Notes under the pieces: model-generated
Database searches by the model: none
The model's input: only the letters and a program-made list of their open reading frames with translations
Told to the model about the DNA's origin: nothing
Translations under genes and position numbers: made by a program
Part shown: in pieces, positions 4,032 to 29,424 of the stretch
Numbering within the stretch: position 1 is the first letter of the stretch
Layout: each line of letters opens with the position of its first letter
NCBI GenBank assembly: GCA_000091165.1
Contig: FP565575.1
Span: 780,001-812,000, forward strand
DNA from: Candidatus Methylomirabilis oxygeniifera
GTDB lineage: Bacteria > Methylomirabilota > Methylomirabilia > Methylomirabilales > Methylomirabilaceae
Length of the DNA stretch: 32,000 nt
Direction: 5' to 3'

Positions 4032-4313
<282 letters not shown>

Positions 4314-4966: not shown

Positions 4967-5059
4967 GCCGAACGCGAGTTCGGGTTCAAGGCTGCGACGT
5001 CGTTCGAGGTGGGATTGCGAAAAACCATTGAGTGGTATAAGGGCGCTCTCCCTTCATAA
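4967..5059 (+). pseudogene. fcl: second, shorter fcl 3'-end fragment (last roughly 30 codons)
   Basis: Translates [30 protein letters not shown]. About 70% nt identity by hand alignment to 4176-4250 of the first remnant. Confidence 0.6.
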
Positions 5060-5215
5060 GTCAGACAACGCAATCATGTGGAACCGTACGATTGCGAGGG
5101 CCCGGACGAGTACAGACTCGATCCACAAAACGAAGGGATTCCTTACTCCTGGGTGCCACGGGACCGATAACGGGTCCAGGTGACCTGTTCGGTCGAGTAA
5201 GGCAGGAAATCATCC

Positions 5216-6172: not shown

Positions 6173-6225
6173 GCTGGAGGGATGAAGAAAGACCGGATAT
6201 TCGCCGGACTGATTGCGATCAAGCG

Positions 6226-6798: not shown

Positions 6799-6852
6799 TG
6801 CACTATGTTTTGAAGACTCACAGAATCGCCTTAGGCAGCGAGTGGTATTCTT

Positions 6853-9072: not shown

Positions 9073-9179
9073 GCGATTGCTCACACGGCGCATTGCTATG
9101 AACGAGTCCGGAAGCAATTCGGCGGGAGACGCACGCCGCAGCACTGCGAGCGGAAACGAGCCAAAGAGAGGTGTGTGTG

Positions 9180-10439
9180 ATGACAGGGAGTCCTGTGATC
9201 TCAACCCATAATGTCGTTCGAGAACGTATGGATACTTTTATCGTCGTATGCGATAGGGACATTAAGCTACTACGACATTTCTTCTTGAGTTACGAACTCT
9301 TTTTCAGATCACCCGGAAGGATTTATCTCTTTATCTCAAGGAAAGATAAACCTCTGTTAGATCTTGTGCGAAAACCCAAGAATCTTGTGGTGTTGTACAA
9401 AGATGATGTGCCGGACTTGGGCGAAGATGATTTCCGTAATCAGATGTACTTGAAAATGATTGCGGACCGCTATGTGGAAACGGACTGGTTCTGGGTTCCA
9501 GATGCGGACTATCTTATTTGCTCTCCAATTCAAGCCTCTGACTTTATGAGGAGCAAAGTCCATGGCCCCTTGTGGTTTTATCGGAATTGGGATGGTGGTC
9601 CGCCAGAACAATCTTGGCGACAAGGATCCGAGCGGTTTTTGAGAGAAACGATCCCTTTTCTTTTCATGGATGCGGCAGAATATATTATGAATAAAAATAT
9701 ACTGGTCAATTTTAGAGAACTCCATGATCTGGACGACCTGCTGGTTCCTTCTCTAAAGACAAGTGAATTTATTGTGTATGGCGCCTTTGCCCACAGGTTG
9801 TATCACGATTACTATAAATGGATCGATCTTGACAGTGACTCACAAACAAGCTTGGCCTACAAGGTGAACCAGCGCCCACCAACGTATTGCGAACTGGATG
9901 AAGACGTCAATTTATCTTCGATGGGTAGCGCAAAGTATGCGGTTTTCTGGTCTCACTGGGATAAATCCGAGCAGAAAATGGTGGAATTTCTCATTGACGC
10001 ACAGATTCGTGAATTCGGGGAAGTGCGAGTTGAGCCCGACACTCAACCCTTATACCTTGCACTCAAAACTGGCAGCTTATCACGCGATGACTTTATTGCT
10101 ATTGGCGGAGCATATTCGGACGGTTGGGTAAAAACGGAGTCGGCGTTCCATCTTACGGTTCCTATGCCTTGCGAACTTGTACTCAAGCTTGAGGTGCCGT
10201 TGTGTTTGGCGCATAACACAACGAGGTTATCTCTTCAAGCAGACGACACGGTTCGAAATTTTACGTTCACCAAGAGACATCATATGTTGCGCATTCCCCT
10301 TAAGTCAGACATCGATAACATTGTTCGCTTGAATTTCTTCGGGGGGATAGCAGAACCTAACGGTGGGCGAAGATTGTATGCTCAACTTACCCAAATGTTT
10401 GTACAGCCGTATGGCTGGAATCCACTGCGGCGAACCTAA
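9180..10439 (+). CDS. hypothetical protein, possible GT-A-like (DxD) transferase, with C-terminal DGW module
   Basis: Long ORF in AT-richer DNA. The ATG at 9180 lies about 9 nt after AAAGAGAGG; the track GTG at 9171 is an alternative. Contains FIVVCDRD... and WFWVPDADYLI (DxD-like). C-terminus: YSDGWVKTESAFHL ... GGRRLYAQL. The catalytic assignment is weak. Confidence 0.6.
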   Translation: MTGSPVISTHNVVRERMDTFIVVCDRDIKLLRHFFLSYELFFRSPGRIYLFISRKDKPLLDLVRKPKNLVVLYKDDVPDLGEDDFRNQMYLKMIADRYVETDWFWVPDADYLICSPIQASDFMRSKVHGPLWFYRNWDGGPPEQSWRQGSERFLRETIPFLFMDAAEYIMNKNILVNFRELHDLDDLLVPSLKTSEFIVYGAFAHRLYHDYYKWIDLDSDSQTSLAYKVNQRPPTYCELDEDVNLSSMGSAKYAVFWSHWDKSEQKMVEFLIDAQIREFGEVRVEPDTQPLYLALKTGSLSRDDFIAIGGAYSDGWVKTESAFHLTVPMPCELVLKLEVPLCLAHNTTRLSLQADDTVRNFTFTKRHHMLRIPLKSDIDNIVRLNFFGGIAEPNGGRRLYAQLTQMFVQPYGWNPLRRT

Positions 10440-10451
10440 AGGATTCTAAAT

Positions 10452-13260: not shown

Positions 13261-13998
13261 ATGAACACAACCACACTTTCGAATTCTTGGCCCAAGTCGC
13301 TTCCGGTACTGAGTGAAGAGCAAGAACGGATTCGTAAAGATTTCATGAATCATTGGCTCGAAGTCTTACCAAATCGCTATGGGTTGATTGAGAAATTCAA
13401 TCACCAATATCCGCTTCGGACGTTAGCCGCTGGAGTCAGAACCCTCGAGATCGGTGCTGGTCTAGGCGCACACCTGCGTTTTGAAAATCTGGAGATACAG
13501 CGAGAATATGTCGCACTTGAATTGCAACCCGAATTGGCAAAGATTATAGATGCCTCCTATCCAGCGGTCCGTGTGGCTGTCGCGGATTGCCAGGAACAGA
13601 TTGATTTCTCAGATGGCCACTTTGATCGGATACTGGCCATTCACGTACTGGAGCACCTGCCCAACCTACCGAAAGCGCTGAACCAGATGCAGCGTTTATT
13701 GAGTCCGACTGGTTTCTTTTCCGTCGTTATTCCCTGTGAGGGTGGGCTGGCGTATAGGATGGCGCGAAATATTTCAGCCCGCCGGATTTTCGAAAAACGT
13801 TATAAGCAGAGTTATGATTGGTTCGTGGCATGCGAACATATCAACTTACCCGATGAGATTCTTTCTGAGCTGCGTTCCCGTTTCTCGATCATCCACCAAG
13901 CGTATTGGCCTCTCGGGATTCCGATTGTCAACTTCAATCTCGCTATAGGGTTAACATTGACGCATCTCACTCCTCCCAAGGCAACGAGTTGCAAATGA
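13261..13998 (+). CDS. class I SAM-dependent methyltransferase
   Basis: Motif I VRTLEIGAGLGAH and post-I/II FDRILAIHVLEHLPN...LLSPTGFFSVVIP. The ATG lies 1 nt after the upstream TGA, so the longer track ORF from 13171 is unlikely. Confidence 0.85.
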   Translation: MNTTTLSNSWPKSLPVLSEEQERIRKDFMNHWLEVLPNRYGLIEKFNHQYPLRTLAAGVRTLEIGAGLGAHLRFENLEIQREYVALELQPELAKIIDASYPAVRVAVADCQEQIDFSDGHFDRILAIHVLEHLPNLPKALNQMQRLLSPTGFFSVVIPCEGGLAYRMARNISARRIFEKRYKQSYDWFVACEHINLPDEILSELRSRFSIIHQAYWPLGIPIVNFNLAIGLTLTHLTPPKATSCK

Positions 13999-14936
13999 CC
14001 TCAGATAAGCCAGACCTCTCGGTTGTGGTGCCGGTATATAAAGAAGAGGCGAATGTCCCGCCTTTTCTCGAGCGGCTTGAGGCAGTCCTCAAGCGAATGG
14101 GGGGGTCCTATGAGATTCTCTTCTGTCTTGATCCATCTCCGGATAGGACAGAAGAGGTGATCATGCGGGCTATTGATCGTAATCCGAACATTAAGCTCCT
14201 TGTATTTTCCCGGCGATTCGGCCAGCCGGCGGCCACGATGGCAGGTCTCCTGATGTGCCATGGAGCGAGCTGCGCGGTGATTGATGTGGACTTGCAGGAT
14301 CCTCCCGAATTGATCGGCGACATGTACAAGAAGCTCCTGGATGGGTACGAGGTGGTATATGCCAAGAGACGATCGCGCAAAGGCGAGACCCTGATAAAAC
14401 GCATAGTGGCGAGAATGGGATACTGGCTGATTGCCAGGCTGAGCGACGTGGAGATCCCGCGTGATACGGGTGATTTCCGCATCATGACGCGCCGGGTGAT
14501 CGAGGAGTTGCGACGTTTGAATGAGATGCACGGGTTTCTACGTGGGCTGGTGGCATATGTGGGGTTTAGGCAGACGTTCATAGAGTACGATCGCGACGAA
14601 CGGGCTCATGGGCAGGGTAATTACAATCGCTTTGTGGGTTCGCTGAAGATCGGGCTCAACGGTCTCATTAGCTTCAGCAGCAAGCCTTTGCAGTTGATGT
14701 CCATCACCGGCGCTCTGTTCGCCGGATTCAGTTTTCTGTTGGGTGCCTGGTATGTTTTACAGAAGCTGATCGGCGTTGCGCTTACGCCCGGACTGTCCAC
14801 CACCGTACTGGTCGTCTCGTTTTTTGCAGGAATACAGCTTCTATCTCTGGGACTCATGGGAGAGTACATCGGACGGATCTACGACGAGGTCAAGCGTCGC
14901 CCGATGTTTATCATCGATCGAAAAATCAATTTCTGA
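13995..14936 (+). CDS. GT2 polyprenyl-phosphate glycosyltransferase (GtrB / ArnC / DPM1-like)
   Basis: LSVVVPVYKEEANV, VIDVDLQDPPE and RDTGDFRIM motifs, plus two C-terminal TM helices (LMSITGALFAGFSFLLGAWYVL and TTVLVVSFFAGIQLLSLGLMGEY), the classic GtrB architecture. The ATGA overlap with the methyltransferase stop suggests translational coupling. Confidence 0.85.
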   Translation: MTSDKPDLSVVVPVYKEEANVPPFLERLEAVLKRMGGSYEILFCLDPSPDRTEEVIMRAIDRNPNIKLLVFSRRFGQPAATMAGLLMCHGASCAVIDVDLQDPPELIGDMYKKLLDGYEVVYAKRRSRKGETLIKRIVARMGYWLIARLSDVEIPRDTGDFRIMTRRVIEELRRLNEMHGFLRGLVAYVGFRQTFIEYDRDERAHGQGNYNRFVGSLKIGLNGLISFSSKPLQLMSITGALFAGFSFLLGAWYVLQKLIGVALTPGLSTTVLVVSFFAGIQLLSLGLMGEYIGRIYDEVKRRPMFIIDRKINF

Positions 14937-14952: not shown

Positions 14953-15909
14953 TTGCGTTACTTCGTTACAGGAGCGGCCGGCTTTATCGGGAGCAACCTG
15001 ATAGATCGATTACTTCTCGATGGCCATGAGGTAGTGGGTTACGATAATTTCTCTACTGGGCAGCCAGAGTTTCTGGCGGGGGCACAGCAGTCGACCTTTT
15101 TCAACCTCGTGTCTGGCGATACACTCGATCAGGAGTATTTGATTCGGGCAATGAAGGGCGCAGATTTTGTCGTCCATCTGGCAGCCAATGCGGATGTGCG
15201 TTTCGGTATGGACCACCCGCGTAAGGACTTAGAACACAATACGATTGCCACCTTCAATGTATTGGAAGCAATGCGCGCCAATGATATTCGCCGAATTGCC
15301 TTTTCTTCCACAGGCTCCATTTACGGTGAGCCGGACATCTTTCCTACACCCGAAGACGCACCCTTCCCCATCCAAACATCGCTCTATGGCGCGTCCAAGT
15401 TGGCCGCTGAAGGGCTGATTGCAGCTTACTGTGAAGGATTTGGTTTTCAGGGGTATATCTTTCGCTTCGTGTCCATCTTGGGCGAACGTTACACGCACGG
15501 ACATGTCTTTGACTTTTACAAGCAACTGCGCGACCATCCCGACACACTACACGTGCTGGGGAACGGCAAGCAACGCAAGTCATACCTGTACGTGCGGGAT
15601 TGTATTGACGCCATGCTTCTAGCGATCGAGCAGGCGCAAGGCAAGATCAACATTTTCAATCTGGGTACAGACGAATATTGTCAGGTGAATGATTCTATCG
15701 GCTGGATTTGCGAATACTTGGGCATTTCTCCGCACCTCATATATGCAGGCGGTGAACGCGGATGGGTGGGGGACAGCCCGTTCATCTTTCTGGACTGCTC
15801 AAGAATCAGGGCGTTAGGCTGGAGGCCACAGTTGACCATTCGTGAGGGTATTATTAGAACGTTGCAATACTTGGAACAGAATCCATCGACTCTGGAACGA
15901 CGGCACTAG
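14953..15909 (+). CDS. NAD-dependent epimerase/dehydratase (extended SDR) acting on a nucleotide sugar
   Basis: VTGAAGFIGSNL Rossmann motif at the N-terminus and catalytic YGASKLAAE. TTG at 14953 is the only start that avoids a long overlap, and GGAG lies 8 nt upstream. Confidence 0.8.
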   Translation: MRYFVTGAAGFIGSNLIDRLLLDGHEVVGYDNFSTGQPEFLAGAQQSTFFNLVSGDTLDQEYLIRAMKGADFVVHLAANADVRFGMDHPRKDLEHNTIATFNVLEAMRANDIRRIAFSSTGSIYGEPDIFPTPEDAPFPIQTSLYGASKLAAEGLIAAYCEGFGFQGYIFRFVSILGERYTHGHVFDFYKQLRDHPDTLHVLGNGKQRKSYLYVRDCIDAMLLAIEQAQGKINIFNLGTDEYCQVNDSIGWICEYLGISPHLIYAGGERGWVGDSPFIFLDCSRIRALGWRPQLTIREGIIRTLQYLEQNPSTLERRH

Positions 15910-15919
15910 ACTCGTCTCT

Positions 15920-16825
15920 ATGTCCCAATATTCGGATCAGTATCATATGACAGCGCATGGAAACTCTTTGGCTGGGAAAGCCGCTGTTATCACTGGTGCA
16001 TCACGGGGCCTGGGGGCGGACATTGCGCGCGCGTTGTGGCGGAATAGATCGAACCTTTTACTCGTCGCTAGATCACAAGATGGATTGATTAAGCTACGTG
16101 AAGAGTTGATAGCCGACGCGGAGGATGGACAGGAATTACATATCGTCGTGGCTGATCTGATGGCGGCGGATGCCGTTCCGGCAATCATCCGTGAAGCTCG
16201 TCAAGTGTGGGACAGGATTGATGTCCTTATCAATAACGCCGCGATCCTTGGGCCGATAGGTAGGGTCTGGGAAAACGATTGGCAGGAATGGCAGACGACA
16301 GTCCGCGTCAATTTATTGTCATCTATTGAACTCTGTCGCGCCTGCATCCCGTGGATGGCGGAGCGCAAATACGGTAAGATTATCAATTTGTCGGGCGGTG
16401 GAGCAACCGGCCCGCGGCCGAACTTCTCCGCATACGCAACAGCTAAGGCGGGCCTGATCAGGTTCAGTGAGACGCTTGCGATGGAAGTTCGCGACCTGAA
16501 TATTGACGTCAATTGTGTGGCGCCTGGAATGATGAATACTGCGATGACCAGGGCAGTTCTGAACGCTGGACCTGAAAAAGCCGGGGCGACAGAATATACT
16601 CAGGCAACCAGCAAGTCCGAAAGTGCCAGGCCGGATACGCATCGTGCGGCCGATCTGTGCGTTTTCCTTGCTTCCACAGCCAGCGATGGGATTACGGGAA
16701 AATTGATCAGCGCGGTATGGGATCCGTGGGAAACGCTTCCGGACCATATTGAGGACTTGAAGGACGCAGATATTTATACCCTACGCCGGATTGTGCCCAA
16801 GGATCGCGGCCAGGACTGGGGATGA
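15920..16825 (+). CDS. classical SDR-family oxidoreductase
   Basis: GKAAVITGASRGLG, NNAA and YATAKAG (YxxxK) motifs. Start at ATG 15920 (alternative 15947). Confidence 0.85.
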   Translation: MSQYSDQYHMTAHGNSLAGKAAVITGASRGLGADIARALWRNRSNLLLVARSQDGLIKLREELIADAEDGQELHIVVADLMAADAVPAIIREARQVWDRIDVLINNAAILGPIGRVWENDWQEWQTTVRVNLLSSIELCRACIPWMAERKYGKIINLSGGGATGPRPNFSAYATAKAGLIRFSETLAMEVRDLNIDVNCVAPGMMNTAMTRAVLNAGPEKAGATEYTQATSKSESARPDTHRAADLCVFLASTASDGITGKLISAVWDPWETLPDHIEDLKDADIYTLRRIVPKDRGQDWG

Positions 16826-16826
16826 G

Positions 16827-17804
16827 ATGAACGTTGCCATCGTCGGGTGTGGGTTAATCGGGCGCAAGCGCGCTATGGCTCTGACGGGTTGTCGGCTGGT
16901 CGCGTGCGCAGACGTTGTGGTGGAGCACGCAGAAGCGCTCGCCAGGACGATACCCGGGACCCAACCCATGACCGATTGGCGTGCATTGGTTGAACGGCAG
17001 GATGTGGATGCGGTCATCGTTTCTACTACCCACAATGCGCTGGCGGACATTACGCTGGCGGCTGTCTTGGCGGGCAAACACGTGCTTGTTGAGAAGCCTG
17101 CGGCGCACCATGCTGCGGAACTCGATCCTGTCATTGATGCGGCGGAACGTGCACAGATACTGGTGCGGGTCGGATTCAACCACCGGTATCATCCCGCTCT
17201 GCGTCAGGCGAAAGCACTTGCTGAGACCGGAGCGATTGGTGAACTTCTGTACGTGCGAGGGCGTTACGGGCACGGGGGGCGCCTCGGATATGAAAAGGAG
17301 TGGCGGGCTGATCCAGCCTTGTCGGGCGGTGGCGAGCTGATTGATCAGGGCGTCCATTTGGTTGACTTGGCCCGGTGGTTCTTGGGCGATTTCACAGACG
17401 TACACGGATTCGCTCAGACGTACTACTGGGATATGCCTGTCGAAGACAACGGTTTTATGCTCCTCAGGACGGCTAAGCAACAGGTTGCGATGCTGCACGC
17501 CAGTTGGACGGAATGGAAGAATCTCTTTTCGTTTGAGATATTCGGGCGTCAGGGGAAATTGGAGATTACCGGACTGGGCGGGAGCTACGGCACGGAGCGA
17601 CTGACGCATTATCGGATGCTCCCCGACATGGGACCGCCCGAGACGACGATATGGGAATATCCCAGGGCCGACACTTCCTGGGACGGCGAATTCACAGAGT
17701 TTGTGGAAGATATTCGTTGCGGACGCCAACCGGCCGCAAGTCTGGCGGACGCACGGGCCGCGTTAGACATTGTCCAACGCATCTATGCTGCATCTGGCGT
17801 ATAA
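16827..17804 (+). CDS. Gfo/Idh/MocA-family NAD(P)-dependent sugar oxidoreductase
   Basis: MNVAIVGCGLIGRKRA Rossmann start, EKP motif (VLVEKPAA) and GELLYVRG...GGGELIDQGVHLVDL. The ATG lies 1 nt after the SDR stop. Confidence 0.85.
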   Translation: MNVAIVGCGLIGRKRAMALTGCRLVACADVVVEHAEALARTIPGTQPMTDWRALVERQDVDAVIVSTTHNALADITLAAVLAGKHVLVEKPAAHHAAELDPVIDAAERAQILVRVGFNHRYHPALRQAKALAETGAIGELLYVRGRYGHGGRLGYEKEWRADPALSGGGELIDQGVHLVDLARWFLGDFTDVHGFAQTYYWDMPVEDNGFMLLRTAKQQVAMLHASWTEWKNLFSFEIFGRQGKLEITGLGGSYGTERLTHYRMLPDMGPPETTIWEYPRADTSWDGEFTEFVEDIRCGRQPAASLADARAALDIVQRIYAASGV

Positions 17805-17837: not shown

Positions 17838-18038
17838 ATGCTGAGCACTTTGAAAATGGAAGTACATTCTGCCGCAATCATTGCAGCGGTCAAGAGAATG
17901 AAGAAGGATGAGCGAGAGGCGTTTTTGGAAGACCTGTTGGCATCAACATCACCTGAGTATCTCGCAAGTATCAAAGAAGCTCGGCAACAATACAAAGCCC
18001 GAAAAGTGCGCACCCATGAAGAGGTCTTTGGCCGGTGA
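17838..18038 (+). CDS. putative type II antitoxin (family not recognised) paired with the RelE/ParE toxin
   Basis: 66 aa, GGGAGG 8 nt upstream of the ATG, stop overlapping the toxin GTG (GTGA). Assignment rests on position and size only. Confidence 0.55.
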   Translation: MLSTLKMEVHSAAIIAAVKRMKKDEREAFLEDLLASTSPEYLASIKEARQQYKARKVRTHEEVFGR

Positions 18039-18292
18039 TCTACCGGCTGGTTTACACTCAAAGGGCTGCGATAGACATTCAACGACTGGATCCGAAAACG
18101 AAGGAACGCGTGAGGAAAGCTCTGAGCCGATATCAAAGTGACCCGCTGAGCTATGCGGACAAATTGACGGATTCCAAACTCGGCTCCTACCGTTTTCGGA
18201 TAGGAGATTATAGAGTCGTCTTCGATCTCGAAGGAGATGAGATCGTAGTTTTGAGAATTGGACATCGAAGAGAGATTTACAGACGAGGGTAG
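18035..18292 (+). CDS. RelE/ParE-family type II toxin
   Basis: 85 aa with the signature LGSYRFRIGDYRVVFDLEGDEIVVLRIGHRREIY. Confidence 0.8.
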   Translation: MIYRLVYTQRAAIDIQRLDPKTKERVRKALSRYQSDPLSYADKLTDSKLGSYRFRIGDYRVVFDLEGDEIVVLRIGHRREIYRRG

Positions 18293-18330: not shown

Positions 18331-19314
18331 ATGATCATCACGCGAAGTCCGTTACGAATTTCGCTGGGTGGAGGTGGAACCGACCTGCCATCCTACTACT
18401 GCGAACACAGCGGGTTTGTGATCGCCGCCGCTATTGACAGATATGTGTATATTACGTTGCATCATACCTTCGTGCAGGAGCTGATTATCAAGTACTCCCG
18501 GATGGAGCGGGTCCGGACGATCGATGAGGTGCAGCATCCCATTATCCGTGAGGCGCTGAGGCTCACAGAGGTTGGCGCGCCGTACCTGGAAATTACGAGC
18601 ATGGCTGATATCCCGGCCGGTACCGGCCTGGGTTCTTCAGGGAGCTTTACGACGGCACTGTTGAAGGCGCTTCACGCGCTGCGAAAGAATCTTATTCACC
18701 CGCAGGAACTGGCCGAGCAGGCTTGCCATATCGAAATCGATGTCCTCGAAGAACCGGTCGGTAAGCAGGATCAATACATCGCCGCCTATGGCGGGATCAC
18801 CTGTTTCCGCTTCCTGCCCAACCATCAGGTGGAGGCGTGGCCGCTTAAGATCGATACGGATACCTTATACAATCTGGAAGACAATCTGCTGATGTTCTTT
18901 ACCGGCTATTCGCGATCCGCGTCGACAGTGCTCCAGGAGCAGGATACAAAAAGCAAGCAGAACGATAAGGAGATGATTGCGAACCTGCATTTCGTCAAGG
19001 AGCTGGGCCGGGAAAGCAAAGAGGCGCTGGAGACCGGCAAGCTGGAGCGGTTTGCCGAGCTGATGAACGTCCATTGGGAGCACAAGAAGCAACGTTCAGC
19101 CAACATGAGCAATAACCACATCGACCAGTGGTACCAGTTGGCGCGCGGCAACGGCGCGTTGGGAGGCAAGCTGATTGGAGCCGGCGGCGGCGGCTTCTTG
19201 ATCTTTTACGCGGACGACAAGGTGCGCCTCCGACGGGCGATGCGGGAAGCCGGTTTGCAGGAGGTTCGCTTCCGCTTCGACTTTGAAGGCACAAAGCTGA
19301 TCGCGCAATCATGA
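18331..19314 (+). CDS. hddA: GHMP-family D-glycero-alpha-D-manno-heptose 7-phosphate kinase
   Basis: MIITRSPLRISLGGGGTDLPSYY start typical of HddA-type GHMP kinases, GHMP motif PAGTGLGSSGS and C-terminal GAGGGGF. Context with gmhA, gmhB and the nucleotidyltransferase supports the call. Confidence 0.8.
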   Translation: MIITRSPLRISLGGGGTDLPSYYCEHSGFVIAAAIDRYVYITLHHTFVQELIIKYSRMERVRTIDEVQHPIIREALRLTEVGAPYLEITSMADIPAGTGLGSSGSFTTALLKALHALRKNLIHPQELAEQACHIEIDVLEEPVGKQDQYIAAYGGITCFRFLPNHQVEAWPLKIDTDTLYNLEDNLLMFFTGYSRSASTVLQEQDTKSKQNDKEMIANLHFVKELGRESKEALETGKLERFAELMNVHWEHKKQRSANMSNNHIDQWYQLARGNGALGGKLIGAGGGGFLIFYADDKVRLRRAMREAGLQEVRFRFDFEGTKLIAQS

Positions 19315-20027
19315 GCCCTGGGATGCTCCCGGTCGTCATTCTTGCAGGTGGCGTTGCCACACGGCTGCGGCCCCTGACAGAGACCATCCCCAAAGCCATG
19401 GTCGATGTAAACGGAGAGCCGTTTATCGCCCACCAACTGCGTTTGTTGCGTGCCAACGGGATTGAGCGGGTGATTATCTGCGCGGGATATCTGGGTGAGG
19501 TGGTTCAGGCGTATGTCGGCGATGGTGCGCGCTTTGGATTACAAGCGGCGTTCTCTTTCGATGGATCCCGCCTCTTGGGAACAGGCGGAGCCGTCAAAAA
19601 GGCGTTGCCGTTGCTGGGTGATGCCTTCTTCGTCCTATATGGCGATTCCTACTTACCCTGTGATTATCGTGCCGTGCAGACTGCATTCACGTCGAGCGGC
19701 AGATTGTCGCTCATGACAGTGTTTCGAAATGACGGTCACTGGGATACGAGCAATGTTGAGTTTGTCAATGGACGAGTTGTCGCCTATAATAAACAACATC
19801 GTACGCCAGGAATGCACTACATCGACTACGGGCTTGGGATATTTACGCACTCTGCCTTCGAGATTGTTCCAGATGGCCGATCCTATGATCTGGCTGCATT
19901 GTATCAAGATCTTCTGACAAAGGGTGAATTGGCAGCTTATGAGGTGGGCCAACGCTTTTATGAGATTGGATCGTTAGAGGGTTTAGAGGAAACCCGGCGT
20001 TACTTGGCAGAGCAACCCTGCACCTGA
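19311..20027 (+). CDS. hddC: sugar-1-phosphate nucleotidyltransferase, likely D-glycero-alpha-D-manno-heptose 1-phosphate guanylyltransferase
   Basis: VVILAGGVATRLRPLTETIPKAMV (G-x-G-t-R-l motif), VLYGDSY. ATGA overlap with hddA. Confidence 0.75.
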   Translation: MSPGMLPVVILAGGVATRLRPLTETIPKAMVDVNGEPFIAHQLRLLRANGIERVIICAGYLGEVVQAYVGDGARFGLQAAFSFDGSRLLGTGGAVKKALPLLGDAFFVLYGDSYLPCDYRAVQTAFTSSGRLSLMTVFRNDGHWDTSNVEFVNGRVVAYNKQHRTPGMHYIDYGLGIFTHSAFEIVPDGRSYDLAALYQDLLTKGELAAYEVGQRFYEIGSLEGLEETRRYLAEQPCT

Positions 20028-20041
20028 AGAAGGGGTCATGT

Positions 20042-20638
20042 ATGAGTTTTGTGCAACAGTATCTCTCAGAGGCGGGTCAGATCCTGCCGCAACTTGATAC
20101 GGACGCCATTGATCGAGTCGTGGCCTTACTGGCCGAGACCAGAGCAAGAGGCGGACGGCTGTTCATCCTGGGGGTCGGTGGAAGCGCGGCCAACGCCTCG
20201 CATGCAGTCAATGATTTTCGAAAGCTCGTCGGGTTGGAAACCTATACCCCGACAGATAATGTCTCAGAGCTAACCGCGCGCACAAACGATGAGGGATGGG
20301 CGAGCGTATTCGAGGGGTGGCTGCGTATCAGCCGGGTGCAATCGGATGATCTGGTGCTGGTGTTCTCGGTGGGAGGCGGCAACGTCGAGAACAATATCAG
20401 TCCGAATCTGGTCAGTGCGCTGCAATATGCGAAGCGTGTCGGCGCACGGGTCATAGGAGTGGTTGGGCGGGATGGCGGCTACACGGCGCAAGTCGCAGAT
20501 GCCTGCGTGATTGTCCCAACGGTCAATCCTGCTCACGTGACCCCACATACGGAAGCCTTTCAGGCCGTGATCTGGCATTTGCTGGTCTCGCATCCACAGC
20601 TCAAGGCGGCGGAAACGAAGTGGGAATCTGTTCGATGA
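20042..20638 (+). CDS. gmhA: SIS-domain sedoheptulose 7-phosphate isomerase
   Basis: GGRLFILGVGGSAANASHAVNDF and VFSVGGGN motifs. The 198-aa size is typical of GmhA. Confidence 0.8.
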   Translation: MSFVQQYLSEAGQILPQLDTDAIDRVVALLAETRARGGRLFILGVGGSAANASHAVNDFRKLVGLETYTPTDNVSELTARTNDEGWASVFEGWLRISRVQSDDLVLVFSVGGGNVENNISPNLVSALQYAKRVGARVIGVVGRDGGYTAQVADACVIVPTVNPAHVTPHTEAFQAVIWHLLVSHPQLKAAETKWESVR

Positions 20639-21198
20639 AGGAGCAATTGCGTCGAGCTGTATTCCTGGACCGCGACGGGGTTCTCAATCGTGCTATTGTG
20701 AAAAACGGAACCCCTCATCCGCCTGCCACTCTCGCGGAGTTAGAGATCGTGCCGGATGCGTCCAAGGCGCTCGAGGCTCTTAGGGCTGCGGGATTTTTGC
20801 TGATCGGTGTCACGAATCAACCCGACGTTGCGCGAGGAACACAGCGACGGGAGGTGGTAGAAGCCATCAACGCTGCGCTGCTTGCAGTGTTGCCCCTGCA
20901 GGAAATGCTGGTTTGCTACCACGACGATCAGGACGGTTGTGACTGTCGTAAGCCTCTGCCTGGCCTTTTGATTCAGGCCGCTGCCAGATATGGGATCGAT
21001 CTGCCGTTGAGCTTCATGATCGGTGATCGCTGGAAAGATGTTGAAACCGGACGTCGAGCCGGCTGTACGACCGTTCTGATAGGCTGCGGTTATGAGGAGA
21101 TGAGGCCTGACATCGCATCGGATTATACCGCGCATTCGCTTTCCGAGGCAGCAGTGCGGATTCTTAGTCGCTCCAATGCGGAGGGTGGAACCGTATGA
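20635..21198 (+). CDS. gmhB: HAD-IIIA D,D-heptose 1,7-bisphosphate phosphatase
   Basis: AVFLDRDGVLN (DxD nucleophile), GVTNQPDVARG, Zn/Cys motif CYHDDQDGCDCRKPLPG and MIGDRWKDVETG. ATG 20635 overlaps the gmhA stop (ATGA); the track start at 20620 is less likely. Confidence 0.8.
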   Translation: MKEQLRRAVFLDRDGVLNRAIVKNGTPHPPATLAELEIVPDASKALEALRAAGFLLIGVTNQPDVARGTQRREVVEAINAALLAVLPLQEMLVCYHDDQDGCDCRKPLPGLLIQAAARYGIDLPLSFMIGDRWKDVETGRRAGCTTVLIGCGYEEMRPDIASDYTAHSLSEAAVRILSRSNAEGGTV

Positions 21199-21911
21199 AA
21201 TCCGTATCCGAATTAAGGGTCAAAATATTCGCAGACGGCGCGGACAAGACCGGCATCCTGGAAATGTACCGCAACCCGCTGATCAAAGGTTTCACCACCA
21301 ATCCGACGCTGATGCGTAAAGCCGGAGTCTCGGACTATCAGGCCTTTGCGTTTGACATCCTGCGAGCTATCCCCGATCGTCCCATTTCTTTCGAGGTCTT
21401 CTCAGACGACTTCACAGAGATGGCCCGTCAGGCCCGTAAGATCGCAGGATGGGGCGAGAACGTCTATGTGAAGATCCCCGTCACAAACACCCAGGGCGAG
21501 TCGTCCGCAAAGCTGGTTTATGATCTCGCGCGAGAAGGGGTAAAACTGAACGTGACAGCGCTGACAGCGCTGGATCAGGTGCGCGAGATGAGCGCCGCTC
21601 TGGCGGGAGGACCTCCGGCTATTGTGTCGGTTTTCGCCGGACGTGTCGCGGATACCGGCAGAGACCCCGTGCCGCATATGGCGGAGGCCGTGGAGTGTGT
21701 GCGTTCGTACCGGAATATTGAATTGATCTGGGCCAGCCCACGCGAGCTGCTCAATATCATTCAAGCCGACGCCATTGGCTGTCACATCATTACTGTGACA
21801 CAAGATATTTTGAAGAAATTGCACCTCATCGGCAAGGACCTGCATGAGTACTCACTCGACACTGTCAAGATGTTTCACGATGATGCCAGGAACGTCGGCT
21901 ATACGCTGTAG
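21195..21911 (+). CDS. short-form transaldolase / fructose-6-phosphate aldolase family protein
   Basis: KIFADGAD, GFTTNPTL, Schiff-base lysine context NVYVKIPVT and SVFAGR. ATGA overlap with the gmhB stop. Confidence 0.8.
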   Translation: MKSVSELRVKIFADGADKTGILEMYRNPLIKGFTTNPTLMRKAGVSDYQAFAFDILRAIPDRPISFEVFSDDFTEMARQARKIAGWGENVYVKIPVTNTQGESSAKLVYDLAREGVKLNVTALTALDQVREMSAALAGGPPAIVSVFAGRVADTGRDPVPHMAEAVECVRSYRNIELIWASPRELLNIIQADAIGCHIITVTQDILKKLHLIGKDLHEYSLDTVKMFHDDARNVGYTL

Positions 21912-22016
21912 AACCCGGATGGTCCCGCCTGTCGGAGAAGGGACCAGCCCGGTACGAGTAGGATTTACGGAGCTACCGCAGGTGGCTCCATCGGACGCGT
22001 CACGAGGAGCACTCAC

Positions 22017-23057
22017 ATGAAGACCGCACTTATTACCGGCATTACCGGGCAGGACGGCTCGTACCTGACCGAGCTGCTGCTTGCGAAGGGCTACACGGTC
22101 CACGGGCTGATCCGGCGGGCCAGTACGTTTCATACGGAGCGGATCGAGCATCTGTACCAGGATCCGCACGACCCCGAGACCCGTGTCGTCCTGCACTATG
22201 GCGATCTCGCCGATTCCAGCCAGCTTACGAATCTCTTCTATCAGGTCCGGCCGGATGAGGTCTATCACCTGGGGGCGCAAAGCCACGTCCGCGTGAGCTT
22301 CGACATGCCGGACTACACGGGCGACATTACCGGGCTAGGCACAGTCCGGCTGCTGGAGGCGATCCGCAAGAGCGGGGTGGGGTGTCGGATCTACCAGGCC
22401 TCCAGCAGCGAGATGTTTGGGGACGCCCCCGCGCCCCAGAACGAACAGAGCGCCTTCCAGCCGCGCAGCCCCTATGCGGCCGCCAAGCTGTACGCCTACT
22501 GGATGGTGCGCAATTACCGGGAAGGGTACGGGCTCTTTGCCTGTAACGGCATTATGTTTAATCACGAGTCGCCACGGCGGGGGGAGACCTTCGTGACCCG
22601 CAAGATTACACGGGCGGTATCCGCTATCCTCGCCGGACGGCAGAAGATGCTGTTCCTGGGTAACCTTGAGGCTCGCCGCGATTGGGGGTTTGCGCCGGAG
22701 TACGTCGAGGGGATGTGGCTGATGCTCCAGCAGTCGGCGCCGTGCGACCTGGTGTTCGGGACCGGGGAGACCCATTCGGTACGGGAGTTCGTCGAGGAGG
22801 CCTTCGGCTACGTGAACTTGGACTGGCGAGACTATGTGACCGAGGACCCGCGCTACCGCCGCCCCACCGAGGTCCCGCTCCTGCTGGCCGATCCCTCCGA
22901 GGCCAAGCGACGCCTCGGGTGGCAGCCAACCGTCGCATTCCGGGACTTGGTCCGGATCATGATGGACGCCGATCTGGAGGCCGCGGGCCTACCCGCGCCA
23001 GGGCAGGGGACACACTGTCTGACCGACGGTCGACTGGCATGGCTCAGGAAGCCGTGA
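22017..23057 (+). CDS. gmd: GDP-mannose 4,6-dehydratase family enzyme (possibly a GDP-heptose 4,6-dehydratase in this context)
   Basis: [44 protein letters not shown] and NHESPRRG are canonical Gmd motifs. GAGGAG sits 7 nt upstream of the ATG. Confidence 0.9.
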
Positions 23058-23156: not shown

Positions 23157-23717
23157 CTACCCCAGCACGACCTCTGTCGGTAGCACGATCTCCGGCAGCG
23201 CAAGGGGGGACAACACTTCTCCCAGCCCAATCGATCGGACCTCTCGGTACCCCATTGGGGTAGGATCTCGATAGATCGCGATCGTCCGCTGAGTCAAGGT
23301 GACGAGCCAGACCTCGGAGATGCCGGCTTGGGCGTACAGTGGCACCTTGACCTCGCGGTCCACCCCAGCAGAGGTCTCGGCCACCTCCACGACAAGCAGG
23401 ATAGCCTCTGGACCAGGATGGGCCTCGGCGTAGAAGTCGGGTTTGGGTCTCGCCAGGACCAGGTCGGGCTGAAGCTCTGAAAGGCGGCTCAACCGAATCG
23501 GATTCTGGACCCGGACGATAGCGGCCTCCCCCACTCGCTGTGAGAACAGCCGGTTCAGTCGATCGACGCAGGCGGCATGGCGACTCCCAATAGGTGTCAT
23601 CTCGATCAGCTCTCCCTCGACCAGCTCAACCCGGCTGTCCCCTGTCAGAATGCGGGACTCAGCCATCCGATGAAACTCCTCCACCGTGAAACGATGCCTC
23701 GCAAGCTGGACCGTCAT
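23157..23717 (-). CDS. Uma2-family (DUF820, PD-(D/E)xK-like) putative endonuclease
   Basis: FTVEEFHRMAE..., VELVEGELIEMTPIGSRH, LQPDLVL, LVVEVAETS and YAQAGISEVWLV match the Uma2 pattern. Confidence 0.85.
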   Translation of the reverse strand: MTVQLARHRFTVEEFHRMAESRILTGDSRVELVEGELIEMTPIGSRHAACVDRLNRLFSQRVGEAAIVRVQNPIRLSRLSELQPDLVLARPKPDFYAEAHPGPEAILLVVEVAETSAGVDREVKVPLYAQAGISEVWLVTLTQRTIAIYRDPTPMGYREVRSIGLGEVLSPLALPEIVLPTEVVLG

Positions 23718-24002
23718 GTCGCATCTCCTGCATCGACAAGATTATTCGCCTCTGTTCTTGGGTGCGAAGTTCCCCTCGTCCTTGGCCCTAGCGTATAGCA
23801 GAACCCATGCGAAGAGCAAGCTCACATTTAGGCTGGCCACTGAGATCACCGTCGGAGGCACAAAGAAGGGACGGATGAGTTCATCGATACGAAGGCAAAG
23901 CAAACATCGCAACACGCCGAGCACTTTCTTGAGGCGGTCGCGGCGTATTTTCAGGAGCGAGGAGATGACGTCCTTTTGAGAGAAGAGATCGGTGATCCAG
24001 GA

Positions 24003-24584
24003 CTAGGCGAGCGCCTCATCCACCTGAGCTTCAAACCCCACCAAGACCGACGATCGAGCTCTTTCCTCATGGCCGAAGCGCCCAATCAGACGATAACTCC
24101 CTTGCTCTAAGGCAAACACCTCTATCGTTCCCCCCTCCCAATCTACGATCCAATATTCGCCCACGCCGCATTGCTCATACAGCGCCTTTTTCTCAACATG
24201 GTCTCGTCGTCACGTCCCTGGTGAGACGACTTCCACGATCAGATCAGGCGCTTCGTGAATCTGATCCCGAATGATCGCTTGTCTGGCATGTGAGATATAG
24301 ACGATATCGGGTTGCACGACCCGCCGTGGTGTCAGGACGACATCCAACGGCGCAAGTAAGATTTCGTCCAATTGATGCATGGACACAAATTGAGCCAGCA
24401 GGCGAGCCACACGGAAAGAGATTCTCTGGTGCTGGGCAACCGGTGAAGGCGTCTTGACGAGATCTCCTTCCCATAGTTCGGTCGGCTGATTCGTCTCGGT
24501 TTTCTCAGCGAGCAGTTCGTTGTACGTCCACACTCGCTTCCTCCGTAACACCTTTGTAGCCATCCCGGGCACCTCCTCCGCCAC
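24003..24584 (-). pseudogene. second Uma2-family gene interrupted by one in-frame TGA
   Basis: The track ORF stops at TGA (24210-24212) straight after ...LIVEVVSPGT. The same frame continues RRDHVEKKALYEQCGVGEYWIVDWEGGTIEVFALEQGSYRLIG... to a TAG at 24003-24005. That continuation is the expected Uma2 C-terminal half. Confidence 0.7.
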
Positions 24585-24708
24585 TCACCAACCCTCAGCC
24601 TGCGAGAGCATGCCTGGGCGAACCGGCCAGACGCAGGTGAGGTTACTCCTCGTCTCTCTTTACCGCATAGAGGTGACGGCCGTCAAGCATGACGCCGCGC
24701 ACCCCAAC

Positions 24709-28097: not shown

Positions 28098-28724
28098 CTA
28101 TTTTTTGAGGAGCCCAAGGTTGCACTGGGCATCCCGCTCTAGGAGCCGCCGCATGGTGGCGAAATCCTCCTGGGGCAGCACGTCCGGCAAGTGGTGGAGG
28201 CAGAGAGGAGTTCGGTCGGCCACGATCTTCCCTTCAATGACGTCTGCCAGATAAAAGAGATGCGCCCCGGCATCGAGGACATCTCTGACTTCGCATTCCA
28301 GGTAGCCGACAGTCCCTGACAGGATGGGGCTGCCGGTCACCCCGCGCTCAAAGGGGAGGGTTGCAAATTTATCCACGTCCCGGCCTGACCGAAAGCCGAA
28401 GTGAGTGACCAACGGCCATTGATCTTTTCCGAGCAGGTTCAGCGCAAATCGTTGGCTTTTCTCAATTAGCTCGCGGGTAAAGGTCGTCCGACCGATCCCG
28501 ACCAGAAGGCGGGGAACCTGCGGGACGATCGTCGCCGGCACCACCCAGCACACAATCTGGCCACTACATCGGTCCTGATGGGCTGCCGTTAGAACGAAGA
28601 TCTCAAAATCCAGCTTCCCGAATACTGCCGCAACGCTGTTTGCGTCCATGGGGCCTTCTTCGATCTGAGTGAGGACGGACCATGAGAGATTGTCCTGTCG
28701 CAATCCCTTATGCATCTGCATCAT
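28098..28724 (-). CDS. flavin reductase-like (FMN-binding split-barrel) protein
   Basis: FEIFVLTAAHQDRCSGQIVCWV...RFALNLL...SGRDVDKF...SPILSGTVGYLECEV pattern. The start is uncertain: 28724 overlaps the upstream gene by 17 nt, and the internal ATG at 28649 has GAAGG 5 nt upstream. Confidence 0.7.
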   Translation of the reverse strand: MMQMHKGLRQDNLSWSVLTQIEEGPMDANSVAAVFGKLDFEIFVLTAAHQDRCSGQIVCWVVPATIVPQVPRLLVGIGRTTFTRELIEKSQRFALNLLGKDQWPLVTHFGFRSGRDVDKFATLPFERGVTGSPILSGTVGYLECEVRDVLDAGAHLFYLADVIEGKIVADRTPLCLHHLPDVLPQEDFATMRRLLERDAQCNLGLLKK

Positions 28725-29424
28725 GTACGTGTACGAATGTTGCAGCGCTTGTCATCACGCCCTTCGCAATGCCGACCGCCCTCTGCGCCTCTGCGATCGT
28801 TGGTTCACCGAGCGGCAAAAGTCCCGCCTCTGCGGGATATCTCCCCCTATAGATGCTGTCGATATACACGATATCGTCCTCAGTGACGTCAATTGTGATC
28901 CTGTATTCTTCTGCCAGTACAAGCAGCCGCTCAGCGCTATGTGTTTTTTCCAGCTCCCATCCTTTGCTGAGTAACAATGCTTTTAATGCCTTCTCTATCG
29001 CTTGCTGAGCATGAAGGCATGCACCTCGATAAAACCCTCCGCGAAGCAGGTAATCGGCCATCTTCAACTCGTCCTCCGACTGCCTGAACCACTCCTTTGC
29101 CGCGTCCTTCATATACAATAATCTCCCTTCTCGTAATATCAATCCCAGAAAAGGACTGCCTTTCAAATAGTGCTCTCGAAAAGCCGAAAGAGAAGTGACA
29201 AAGGGGTCAATGGCGAATCTCTTATAGAAATCCTTGAGTTGCCCATATAGTAATCGATCAATATTTTTATCAAGCGGCTTCACGCTATCATCAAGCACAA
29301 TGAGTAAATCGAGGTCGTTTCCTATGCCTTCCCGTGCCGTAGAACCGAAGACAGTGATACAAATAGGGGAGAAGCCCTTTCTGATTGCATCAGACACCTC
29401 TTTTGCTTCTCTTAAGGTAACCAC
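28708..29424 (-). CDS. fused minimal nucleotidyltransferase (MNT) - HEPN domain protein
   Basis: N-terminal half: VFGSTAREGIGNDLDLLIVLDD (GS-x-AR ... DxD of pol-beta NTases). C-terminal half: ADYLLRGGFYRGACLHAQQAIEKALKALLLSKGWELEKTHSAERLL (HEPN helix pattern). GTG start. Confidence 0.8.
   Translation of the reverse strand: MVTLREAKEVSDAIRKGFSPICITVFGSTAREGIGNDLDLLIVLDDSVKPLDKNIDRLLYGQLKDFYKRFAIDPFVTSLSAFREHYLKGSPFLGLILREGRLLYMKDAAKEWFRQSEDELKMADYLLRGGFYRGACLHAQQAIEKALKALLLSKGWELEKTHSAERLLVLAEEYRITIDVTEDDIVYIDSIYRGRYPAEAGLLPLGEPTIAEAQRAVGIAKGVMTSAATFVHVHDADA

Follow-up and report, generated by a model that had tools for sequence, protein, structure and literature searches.

A transaldolase-containing, probable sugar-nucleotide gene cassette of many phyla in Candidatus Methylomirabilis oxygeniifera

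Five genes encoding a kinase, a nucleotidyltransferase, an isomerase, a phosphatase and a transaldolase form the core of an uncharacterised cassette that occurs in more than ten phyla and is not a local oddity of Candidatus Methylomirabilis oxygeniifera. In the window, that is, the whole stretch of DNA analysed (32,000 nucleotides, positions 780,001 to 812,000 of contig FP565575.1), this core (18331-21911) and three upstream genes (14953-17804) probably constitute one horizontally mobile unit for making a sugar nucleotide, with the neighbouring gmd gene separate from it. Gene families, gene coupling, synteny across phyla and gene fusions are observed directly; substrates, the carbon number of the sugar and the nucleotide base are inferred.

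A coupled five-gene core

ORF and family profile checks recover the six ORFs of an earlier sequence-only reading at the same coordinates and in the same families:

18331-19314, forward strand: GHMP kinase of the HddA/WcbL clade, predicted anomeric sugar-phosphate kinase (PF00288 and PF08544)
19311-20027, forward strand: sugar-1-phosphate nucleotidyltransferase (NTP-transferase; PF00483), alternative start at 19323
20042-20638, forward strand: SIS-domain ketose/aldose phosphate isomerase, remote GmhA relative (PF13580)
20620/20635-21198, forward strand: GmhB-type HAD-IIIA sugar bisphosphate phosphatase (TIGR01656)
21195-21911, forward strand: transaldolase (TAL) of the TIGR02134 type
21912-22016, forward strand: spacer between transaldolase and gmd, with two hairpins and the GAGGAG ribosome-binding site of gmd
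22017-23057, forward strand: Gmd, canonical GDP-mannose 4,6-dehydratase (TIGR01472)

The cassette genes are joined by ATGA overlaps and short gaps. All three reported overlaps (19311, 20635, 21195) are seen in the sequence; gene callers run on the same DNA start the nucleotidyltransferase at ATG 19323, which gives an 8-nt gap instead of the 4-nt overlap. The five genes from kinase to transaldolase were rightly described as one translationally coupled unit that follows the logic of the GHMP-type heptose route, with which it has in common the combination of isomerase, anomeric kinase, distal phosphatase and nucleotidyltransferase. Within the window, the GC content of the glycan island is below that of its flanks, and gmd falls on the flank side.

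The kinase scores 166 bits against the HddA model (cut-off 600), and its nearest solved relatives are heptose-7-phosphate kinases, the closest structures being WcbL (4usk/4usm, 157-158 bits, the best PDB matches) and HddA. For the nucleotidyltransferase, MurU scores above HddC both among NCBIfam models (125 against 80, with an HddC cut-off of 300) and among PDB structures (107 bits for MurU 4y7t against 69 bits for HddC 5xhw). The SIS protein reaches 55 bits with the gmhA model TIGR00441 (cut-off 209) and 47 bits with B. pseudomallei GmhA, where a His, an Asp, a Glu and a His of the query align with what we take to be the metal and catalytic positions of GmhA. The HAD protein exceeds the cut-off of TIGR01656 (115 bits, cut-off 84) and stays below that of the GmhB model PRK08942 (101, cut-off 178); its translation contains the motifs DRDG, TNQ, CxH...CxCRKP and GDR, including the GmhB Zn-loop. 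With the four proteins far under the curated equivalog cut-offs and the nucleotidyltransferase nearer MurU, their identification as a complete GDP-heptose set (hddA, hddC, gmhA, gmhB) was premature. Judged by family scores, neither heptose nor GDP is established for the product, and with a nucleotidyltransferase that resembles MurU more than HddC, GDP is unproven as the base.

The transaldolase scores 341 bits against TIGR02134 (cut-off 282). Its D14, E67, K93 and T121 align with the catalytic D6, E60, K86 and T110 of T. acidophilum TAL, its phosphate-binding S145/R150 and S181/R183 with S130/R135 and S167/R169, and its F147 with F132, a position that holds Phe in transaldolases and Tyr in F6P aldolases. 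By this alignment the catalytic residues are intact and the enzyme is of the Phe type.

Conservation across genomes

A scan for the transaldolase family gave more than 592 genomic matches. Kinase, NTP-transferase, SIS, HAD and TAL genes lie at fixed offsets of -2850, -1850, -1150, -540 and 0 in Acidobacteriota, Chloroflexota, Planctomycetota, Elusimicrobia, Gamma-, Alpha- and Deltaproteobacteria, Leptospiraceae and others. Because dozens of unrelated genomes keep the identical order with constant spacing, this arrangement is far beyond chance. In a census of 54 evaluable loci, the transaldolase gene neighbours a SIS gene in 51, a HAD gene in 41, a kinase gene in 40 and an NTP-transferase gene in 30, with at least one partner in 52; the transaldolase itself is 61-81% identical across phyla. 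Gene fusions join the same partners: HAD-TAL in P0063, P0092, P0121, P0123, P0140 and P0150, TAL-SIS within a shuffled cassette copy (P0129), and SIS-HAD in eight loci. The ATGA overlap, the synteny and the fusions bear out the suggestion that the transaldolase is functionally tied to the sugar operon. Its coupling had been taken for a non-standard feature of one genome; the enzyme is instead the best-conserved member of a widespread cassette.

Probable tailoring and transfer genes

Upstream of the core, the window holds the following features:

10452-13259, forward strand: membrane protein of 935 aa, for which a hydropathy scan predicts 12 TM helices and a soluble domain of about 450 aa
13995-14936, forward strand: GT2 polyprenyl-phosphate glycosyltransferase of the ArnC/PgfS/GtrB type (PgfS/ArnC models)
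14953-15909, forward strand: GalE-like NDP-sugar epimerase, probable tailoring enzyme of the cassette
15920-16825, forward strand: classical SDR oxidoreductase (adh_short), probable tailoring enzyme of the cassette
16827-17804, forward strand: Gfo/Idh/MocA sugar oxidoreductase (Pfam), probable tailoring enzyme of the cassette
17838-18292, forward strand: inserted toxin-antitoxin pair, a 66-aa antitoxin and an 85-aa ParE-family toxin (called genes, PF05016)

The epimerase scores 281 bits against A. fulgidus GalE-1 (3ehe) and carries the motifs SSTGSIYG and YGASK; the dehydratase motif TDE is absent from its sequence. It occurs in 19 of the 54 loci (63-72% identity), as does the SDR, and the Gfo/Idh/MocA protein in 21, at about -3.8 kb. 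The nearest PDB structures of the latter are levoglucosan, inositol and C-glycoside 3-dehydrogenases and the sugar 3-ketoreductase KijD10. These three genes had been put forward as reductase or epimerase candidates for a 6-deoxyheptose route; their co-travel in many genomes upholds them as tailoring enzymes of the pathway of the five core genes, though not of that route. Among the loci, 27 carry an NDP-sugar dehydrogenase of one homology cluster and 10 a DegT aminotransferase. In Rhizobium jaguaris an unbroken array of 11 genes reads GT2, GtrA, epimerase, NDP-sugar dehydrogenase, SDR, Gfo, kinase, NTP-transferase, SIS, HAD and TAL, and Lawsonia plasmid 3 bears the whole set minus GtrA under generic PGAP names. 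The dehydrogenase gene lies directly 5' of the SDR gene in most relatives; this window has none. In this genome alone the cassette is interrupted by the toxin-antitoxin insertion; the cassettes of Rhizobium and Lawsonia have no such pair at the corresponding place. Because the dehydrogenase is missing and the toxin-antitoxin pair inserted, the window cassette may be a reduced variant.

An ArnC/PgfS-type glycosyltransferase is a frequent companion of the cassette, and the GT2 of the window likely consumes its sugar nucleotide. This protein is 70-76% identical to its counterparts in four loci (L019, L031, L053, L077) and in R. jaguaris; in L019 and R. jaguaris only a GtrA gene separates its gene from the epimerase gene downstream. 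The set recalls the Gtr/Arn/Pgf systems of lipid-carrier glycosylation, which comprise a GtrB/ArnC/PgfS-type GT2, a GtrA flippase and a GT-C transferase: the window GT2 fits the models (PgfS 232 bits, ArnC 150 bits) and has two C-terminal TM helices by hydropathy scan, GtrA lies beside the GT2 in cassette relatives, and a 12-TM protein lies upstream in the window. The GT2 scores, however, do not reach the equivalog cut-offs, the window yielded no GtrA, and the 12-TM protein belongs to no recognisable family. The latter gave no Pfam or NCBIfam match and is not conserved with the cassette among relatives; its candidacy as a GT-C-type transferase for the lipid-linked sugar is the weakest link in our model.

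Gmd and the fcl remnants

Gmd and the GDP-heptose 4,6-dehydratases (7us5, DmhA, WcbK) are members of one extended-SDR dehydratase superfamily. Gmd nevertheless passes the Gmd equivalog cut-off (TIGR01472, 492 bits, cut-off 415) and scores 390-440 bits against true GDP-mannose dehydratases in the PDB (Arabidopsis MUR1 439, E. coli 406, human 393), as opposed to 124 bits against the C. jejuni GDP-heptose enzyme 7us5. Its GC3 is 0.82, compared with 0.55-0.71 for the cassette genes. A gmd gene is near the cassette in 7 of 54 loci only; the sole gmd-linked locus examined (L022) has a full-length fcl directly after gmd, and the cassette of the closest relative (L006) has no gmd nearby. The distance from the transaldolase stop (21911) to the gmd ATG (22017) is 105 nt, as reported; this spacer has a fold energy of -44.6 kcal/mol (z = -2.0) and no U tract, and the terminator scan made no call in it. 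Judged by scores, composition and linkage, Gmd is an ordinary GDP-mannose dehydratase outside the cassette, and its assignment to GDP-heptose and a 6-deoxyheptose route finds no support.

The fcl fragments noted before are real and consist of two 3'-end remnants:

4074-4313, forward strand: 3'-terminal remnant of fcl (GDP-L-fucose synthase), matching NF047922 positions 246-304 of 308 (49.5 bits)
4883-5059, forward strand: second, shorter fcl 3'-end copy, in which ...AEREFGFKA...GLRKTIEWYK parallels the first remnant

A HicB/HicA-like pair (4425-4898) lies upstream of the second remnant.

Which sugar does the cassette make?

The GDP-octose pathway of lincomycin and celesticetin (LmbR, LmbN, LmbP, LmbK, LmbO) has five enzyme classes in common with the cassette, a likeness of classes alone. 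Because it is, to our knowledge, the only characterised pathway that combines this enzyme set with a transaldolase, we tentatively favour a non-central ketose phosphate over S7P as precursor, by analogy most likely octulose-8-phosphate from ribose-5-phosphate (C8). The lincomycin pathway continues with LmbM, LmbL, LmbZ and LmbS, and the parallel extends to tailoring by epimerase, dehydrogenase and oxidoreductase, with an aminotransferase in some cassette relatives. Unlike it, the cassette belongs to polysaccharide and envelope loci of many non-actinomycete phyla rather than to an antibiotic cluster, includes a further, classical SDR, and in the window lacks dehydrogenase and aminotransferase. 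LmbR itself forms octulose-8-phosphate from F6P or S7P and ribose-5-phosphate (PMC5854111), and the lmb sugar genes encode a phosphatase, dehydrogenase, epimerase, isomerase, oxidoreductase, kinase, guanylyltransferase, aminotransferase and transaldolase (PMC4351081).

The sequence of the transaldolase also permits erythrose-4-phosphate as acceptor, which would yield S7P. Heptoses are frequent in bacterial glycans and linear octoses, as far as we know, almost unknown; even so, a plain S7P or heptose precursor seems rather unlikely. Less credible still is the full scheme first proposed, in which the transaldolase boosts S7P for a GDP-heptose operon, Gmd acts on GDP-heptose to give 6-deoxyheptose, and SDR-type genes supply the reductase or epimerase. 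The enzyme classes do fit GmhA, HddA, GmhB and HddC, the SIS isomerase, GHMP anomeric kinase, HAD-IIIA phosphatase and nucleotidyltransferase chemistry is that of the GDP-heptose pathway, and the heptose-kinase structures, the Zn-loop and the reduction of fcl to remnants in the window agree with it. Against it stand the low equivalog scores, the MurU-like nucleotidyltransferase, the conservation and occasional fusion of the transaldolase, and a Gmd that is canonical, compositionally distinct, rarely linked, followed by its own fcl in L022 and missing beside the L006 cassette. Moreover, S7P already belongs to central metabolism, including the Calvin cycle, and a private supply of it is disfavoured as the transaldolase's role in comparison with a committed ketose-phosphate precursor, possibly C8. 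The canonical GDP-heptose route runs from S7P through only four enzymes, none of them a transaldolase (PMC10680097), and known heptose clusters likewise manage with four enzymes and no transaldolase.

Relatives of the transaldolase occupy quite different glycan contexts, beside a KdsB-like cytidylyltransferase and a 2-hydroxyacid dehydrogenase, within a phage structural module with glycosyltransferases, or beside a class-IV aminotransferase and an amine oxidase, and because of this the family appears versatile. An unusual acceptor could then lead to another sugar (a nonose, or a branched or keto sugar) through co-opted heptose- or octose-style steps; we consider this very unlikely, as it has neither precedent nor direct support and the SIS, kinase and HAD proteins all fall in heptose/octose-type clades. 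Least probable by far is a housekeeping pentose-phosphate enzyme placed beside a glycan operon by accident. The plain transaldolase annotation of TIGR02134 would suit it, as would the standalone members in Firmicutes (48-50% identical, in Staphylococcus and Lactobacillus, where they presumably serve ordinary pentose-phosphate chemistry), but it is contradicted by SIS adjacency across many phyla, the ATGA overlap with the neighbouring gene, independent HAD-TAL and TAL-SIS fusions and the island-like composition of the gene.

Proposed pathway

In the cassette pathway that we prefer, the transaldolase is proposed as the first committed enzyme: it would move a C3 unit from F6P or S7P to an aldose phosphate, giving a ketose phosphate that the SIS enzyme would isomerise to an aldose phosphate. 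The GHMP kinase would add a phosphate at C1, the GmhB-type phosphatase would take off the distal one, and the nucleotidyltransferase would form the NDP-sugar, to be remodelled by the GalE-like epimerase, the SDR and the Gfo oxidoreductase. The ArnC/PgfS-type GT2 would then probably load the product on polyprenyl phosphate, and from this carrier an envelope polymer would be decorated. In this scheme the cassette would supply the cell envelope with a sugar of seven or eight carbons in activated form.

The gene set and its setting

Gene calls and family models bear out both the coordinates and the family assignments that a sequence-only reading had given to six open reading frames:

18331-19314, GHMP kinase (family search)
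19311-20027, nucleotidyltransferase (family search)
20042-20638, SIS protein (SIS_2 domain)
20635-21198, HAD-IIIA hydrolase (family search)
21195-21911, transaldolase (TIGR02134, 341 bits against a cut-off of 282)
22017-23057, Gmd (TIGR01472, 492 bits against a cut-off of 415)

Read directly, the junctions contain all three of the described ATGA overlaps (19311, 20635 and 21195) as well as the 105-nt spacer ahead of gmd, and the SIS gene is preceded by a 14-nt gap. On identical public contigs the gene callers place the transferase start at ATG 19323 and not at 19311, which makes the first of these overlaps optional. A Methylomirabilis oxyfera assembly contig and GCA_009026205.1 both carry the transaldolase protein in identical form.

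The window is a glycan island, which carries GT2 glycosyltransferases, an APS kinase, a sulfotransferase-GT2 fusion, a methyltransferase and a radical SAM/SPASM protein. Its GC content is 45-58% across about 9-22 kb compared to 56-64% in the flanks. The APS kinase gene is followed by the 739-aa fusion of a sulfotransferase (PF03567) and a GT2 domain (together 6226-9072), which suggests that the island also makes a sulfated glycan. A ParE-type toxin-antitoxin pair (17838-18292; 66-aa antitoxin and 85-aa ParE-family toxin) is inserted between the Gfo and kinase genes and splits the cassette, with a terminator-like hairpin at 18223-18245. Downstream lie several genes for Uma2-family putative nucleases and a HEPN/nucleotidyltransferase gene (23157-23717, about 24000-24600, and 28708-29424). 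Together with the HicAB-like and ParE pairs, these render the region unusually rich in toxin-antitoxin-like modules. Two open reading frames, 9171-10439 (422 aa) and 3366-3833 (155 aa), gave no Pfam match, and the former no NCBIfam match either.

A widespread cassette built around a transaldolase

Homologues of the transaldolase with 61-81% identity are spread over many phyla. When one genome per species was scanned with a pattern, at least 592 confirmed relatives emerged, and the window proteins were compared by tblastn with the best 80 of these loci. Across these 80, the kinase, transferase, SIS, HAD and transaldolase genes keep nearly fixed offsets. Partners were counted in the 54 loci among them that have at least 4 kb on both sides.

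Partners of the transaldolase gene in the 54 loci flanked by at least 4 kb on either side, among the best 80 of at least 592
SIS: 51/54
HAD: 41/54
Kinase: 40/54
Transferase: 30/54
SIS, HAD, kinase and transferase all together: 25/54
Any one or more of these four: 52/54
Gfo: 21/54
Epimerase (at least 55% identical): 19/54
SDR: 19/54

The transaldolase is the heart of a widespread cassette: it is conserved more strongly than the other members, is linked to SIS and has been fused repeatedly. Fusions of HAD and transaldolase are seen in at least six distinct proteins, transaldolase and SIS are fused within a shuffled copy of the cassette, and SIS-HAD fusions occur in eight loci. The coupling of the transaldolase to the four-gene unit, proposed earlier from the overlapping junction, is borne out by this conserved synteny, SIS in 51 of the 54 loci included, and by the fusions. 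The same holds for the proposal that the upstream epimerase, SDR and Gfo genes (14953-17804) encode tailoring enzymes of the pathway, as they travel with the cassette in 19, 19 and 21 of the 54 loci, respectively. All-against-all clustering of open reading frames adds a nucleotide-sugar dehydrogenase gene between those of the epimerase and the SDR (27 of 83 loci; absent from the window) and a DegT aminotransferase (10 of 83).

The cleanest full version is found at about 962-975 kb on plasmid pRCCGE525c of Rhizobium jaguaris CCGE525, where 11 contiguous same-strand genes (positions 3200-12714 of locus L087) form an unbroken GT2-GtrA-epimerase-dehydrogenase-SDR-Gfo-kinase-transferase-SIS-HAD-transaldolase array. 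Its proteins are 46-73% identical to their window counterparts, where one exists. Plasmid 3 of Lawsonia intracellularis carries the same set minus GtrA, under generic PGAP names. In the nearest relative, a Methylomirabilales MAG (L006, 6501-9441), the epimerase and Gfo genes are fragments of about 100 aa, and transferase and SIS are apparently fused in a single 441-aa frame. One locus labelled Enterobacteriaceae (L043) looked doubtful, with overlapping frames crowding both strands. The O-antigen region of Coxiella differs from the cassette in having the PfkB/HldE-like CBU0678 instead of the GHMP set.

Transaldolases of this family also occur in other surroundings, and the high-GC representatives from a search of 1.84 billion proteins, none of them bearing a name, sit in other kinds of cluster. 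In L090 (8786-9469) and also L091, the same-family protein P0270 lies in a phage structural module (terminase, portal, capsid, tail), its gene placed between those of a GT2 and a GT7C glycosyltransferase with a methyltransferase gene near. This setting hints at phage-encoded glycan synthesis using a transaldolase. A different transaldolase-containing sugar cluster, L089 (3306-10714), combines P0237 with a KdsB-like cytidylyltransferase, a 2-hydroxyacid dehydrogenase, two SDRs, a Gfo oxidoreductase, a fatty-acid hydroxylase and an LPG_synthase_TM protein. In L092 (1408-8327), the transaldolase P0153 is accompanied by a short GHMP kinase, an NTP-transferase and a SIS protein, and by a class-IV aminotransferase, an aldehyde dehydrogenase and an amine oxidase; this could represent a version of the pathway of the natural-product type.

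How well do the GDP-heptose labels fit?

The sequence-only reading had taken the four genes upstream of the transaldolase for a complete GDP-heptose operon. It assigned the enzyme classes correctly, but all four proteins fall short of the curated equivalog cut-offs, and the transferase is nearer to MurU than to HddC. On the GmhA model TIGR00441 the SIS protein scores 55 bits against a cut-off of 209. GmhA structures match it at 47 bits, and what we take for the metal and catalytic positions of GmhA are paired in the alignment with a His, an Asp, a Glu and a His of the SIS protein. It counts as a homologue of GmhA, yet by the curated threshold it is not predicted to be an equivalog. The kinase obtains 166 bits against 600 on the HddA model NF049969, with the heptose-7-P kinases WcbL and HddA as its nearest solved structures (139-158 bits). 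The HAD protein passes the HAD-IIIA/histidinol-phosphatase domain model (115 bits against 84) and contains the GmhB Zn-loop CxH..CxCRKP; it stays under the GmhB cut-offs (101 against 178 and 57 against 250 bits). The transferase does not qualify as an HddC-type guanylyltransferase: it reaches 80 bits on NF049965, for which the cut-off is 300, its top model is MurU (125 bits), and among PDB structures the uridylyltransferase MurU scores 107 bits compared to 69 bits for HddC. Isomerase, anomeric kinase, distal phosphatase and nucleotidyltransferase therefore make up a well-supported pathway logic, while for the window cassette the name 'GDP-heptose', that is, the identity of both sugar and nucleotide, is unproven.

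What does the transaldolase make?

Aligned with the transaldolase of T. acidophilum, the window protein keeps all catalytic and phosphate-binding residues (D14, E67, K93, T121, F147, R150, S181, R183), and at the position by which transaldolases and F6P aldolases can be told apart it has Phe, not Tyr. These residues show what is, at the sequence level, a true transaldolase.

The earlier proposal gave this enzyme the role of a private S7P supply. S7P is a central metabolite. Four enzymes starting from S7P suffice in characterised GDP-heptose clusters (PMC10680097). A private supply therefore leaves unexplained why the transaldolase is better conserved than any other member, linked to SIS and fused again and again. 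The cassette does not conform to a four-enzyme route from S7P: it has an integral fifth member, the transaldolase, which is conserved and in some cases fused.

To our knowledge, the lincosamide sugar pathway is the sole characterised pathway that has this enzyme set together with a transaldolase. The lmb sugar enzymes of lincomycin and celesticetin biosynthesis include one (PMC4351081). LmbR joins F6P or S7P with ribose-5-P to octulose-8-P (PMC5854111), which is isomerised by LmbN and carried on to GDP-octose by LmbP, LmbK and LmbO; tailoring follows by an epimerase, a dehydrogenase, an oxidoreductase and an aminotransferase (PMC4351081). In the window, a transaldolase, SIS isomerase, GHMP kinase, HAD phosphatase and nucleotidyltransferase are contiguous at 18331-21911, a likeness at the level of enzyme class. 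Of the Lmb-type tailoring enzymes it holds an epimerase and a Gfo oxidoreductase, whereas the NDP-sugar dehydrogenase and the DegT aminotransferase are confined to relatives. LmbL and LmbZ presumably belong to the same protein families as the dehydrogenase and oxidoreductase tailoring enzymes of the cassette. Overall the cassette, its versions in relatives included, matches the Lmb list class for class, with one SDR extra. A homology search from the most natural-product-like transaldolase relative did not find LmbR among its matches.

The class-for-class match favours as precursor a ketose phosphate that is made by the transaldolase and lies outside central metabolism; building it would be the committed step. 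That the precursor is a C8 sugar, a reading drawn from composition and precedent and not from sequence orthology, has in our estimate somewhat less than an even chance. Plain S7P/heptose as the precursor is less likely, and other sugars take the remainder. More tentatively than for the C8 precursor itself, we propose a widespread, unrecognised pathway in which a dedicated transaldolase would form octulose-8-phosphate or another non-central ketose phosphate that is converted to an NDP-activated, remodelled C8 envelope sugar, and of which the lincosamide octose genes would be a specialised offshoot.

Gmd, a neighbor that is probably not a member

A further proposal was that Gmd acts on GDP-heptose and opens a route to 6-deoxyheptose. 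Several observations oppose it. The protein passes its equivalog model, and among solved structures the true Gmd enzymes come nearest, with scores of 439, 406 and 393 bits for the GDP-mannose dehydratases of Arabidopsis, E. coli and human. It is much farther from the heptose dehydratase compared, the C. jejuni GDP-heptose 4,6-dehydratase 7us5, with 124 bits against about 400 for the Gmd enzymes. On these scores it is best predicted to be a canonical GDP-mannose dehydratase. The GC3 of gmd is 0.82, equal to or above that of the flanking core genes, compared to 0.55-0.71 in the cassette genes, and a structured spacer leads up to a separate ribosome-binding site for gmd. No intrinsic terminator was found between the transaldolase gene and gmd, where hairpins lack a U tract. 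Only 7 of the 54 loci have gmd within 10 kb, and tblastn finds none near the cassette of the nearest relative (L006). In L022 (Thermoanaerobaculia), the sole gmd-linked locus examined, gmd is directly followed by a full-length Fcl (305 bits), which marks the pair as an independent GDP-fucose module. The 6-deoxyheptose route is also without support because it is doubtful that the transferase yields a GDP-sugar at all.

The fcl fragments in the window are real: 4074-4313 corresponds to positions 246-304 of the 308-position Fcl model, and a second copy of the 3' end lies at 4883-5059. These two remnants flank a HicB/HicA-like toxin-antitoxin pair (4425-4898), and it looks as if the insertion of this pair duplicated or disrupted the fcl end. 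The missing partner may reside elsewhere in the genome. The epimerase at 14953 was ruled out as a dehydratase or fcl substitute, since it is GalE-like and the dehydratase motif is absent.

Fate of the sugar

The product likely takes a lipid-carrier route to an envelope polymer. The GT2 encoded at 13995-14936 scores 232 bits against 500 on the PgfS model and 150 against 529 on that of ArnC, and has two predicted C-terminal TM helices, a pair typical of polyprenyl-phosphate glycosyltransferases. In about ten loci the cassette comes with close homologues of this GT2, which have GtrA next to them in L019 and in Rhizobium jaguaris; GtrA was not found in the window. Other cassette loci have an LPG_synthase_TM protein or a Bac_transf initiating transferase. 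An upstream 12-TM protein of 935 aa is a candidate final transferase. As a conserved member of the cassette it was ruled out, with no tblastn match in any related locus.

Implications

The observation that started this analysis is confirmed, and its interpretation was partly right: correct on coupling and tailoring genes, wrong on Gmd. For Methylomirabilis this corrects a tempting but unsupported 6-deoxyheptose prediction. No description of the cassette was found in the literature searched, nor is there one in the only two papers there that bring LmbR, transaldolase and octose together.

We know of no sugar-nucleotide pathway started by a transaldolase that has been characterised outside lincosamide antibiotic biosynthesis. 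If the chemistry of the cassette is similar, a class of higher-carbon envelope sugars has been overlooked in hundreds of species, and the cassette would point to where the lincosamide octose genes evolved from. Nine genes now labelled generically by annotation pipelines would gain names. With two cultured hosts, Rhizobium jaguaris, which may be genetically tractable, and Lawsonia intracellularis, the question can be put to the test. Should the C8 reading be true, the sugar would decorate the envelopes of Methylomirabilis, Acidobacteriota, Rhizobium, Lawsonia, relatives of Coxiella and Legionella, and others, and a lincosamine-like deoxy or amino octose would be possible in those relatives that have both the dehydrogenase and the aminotransferase.
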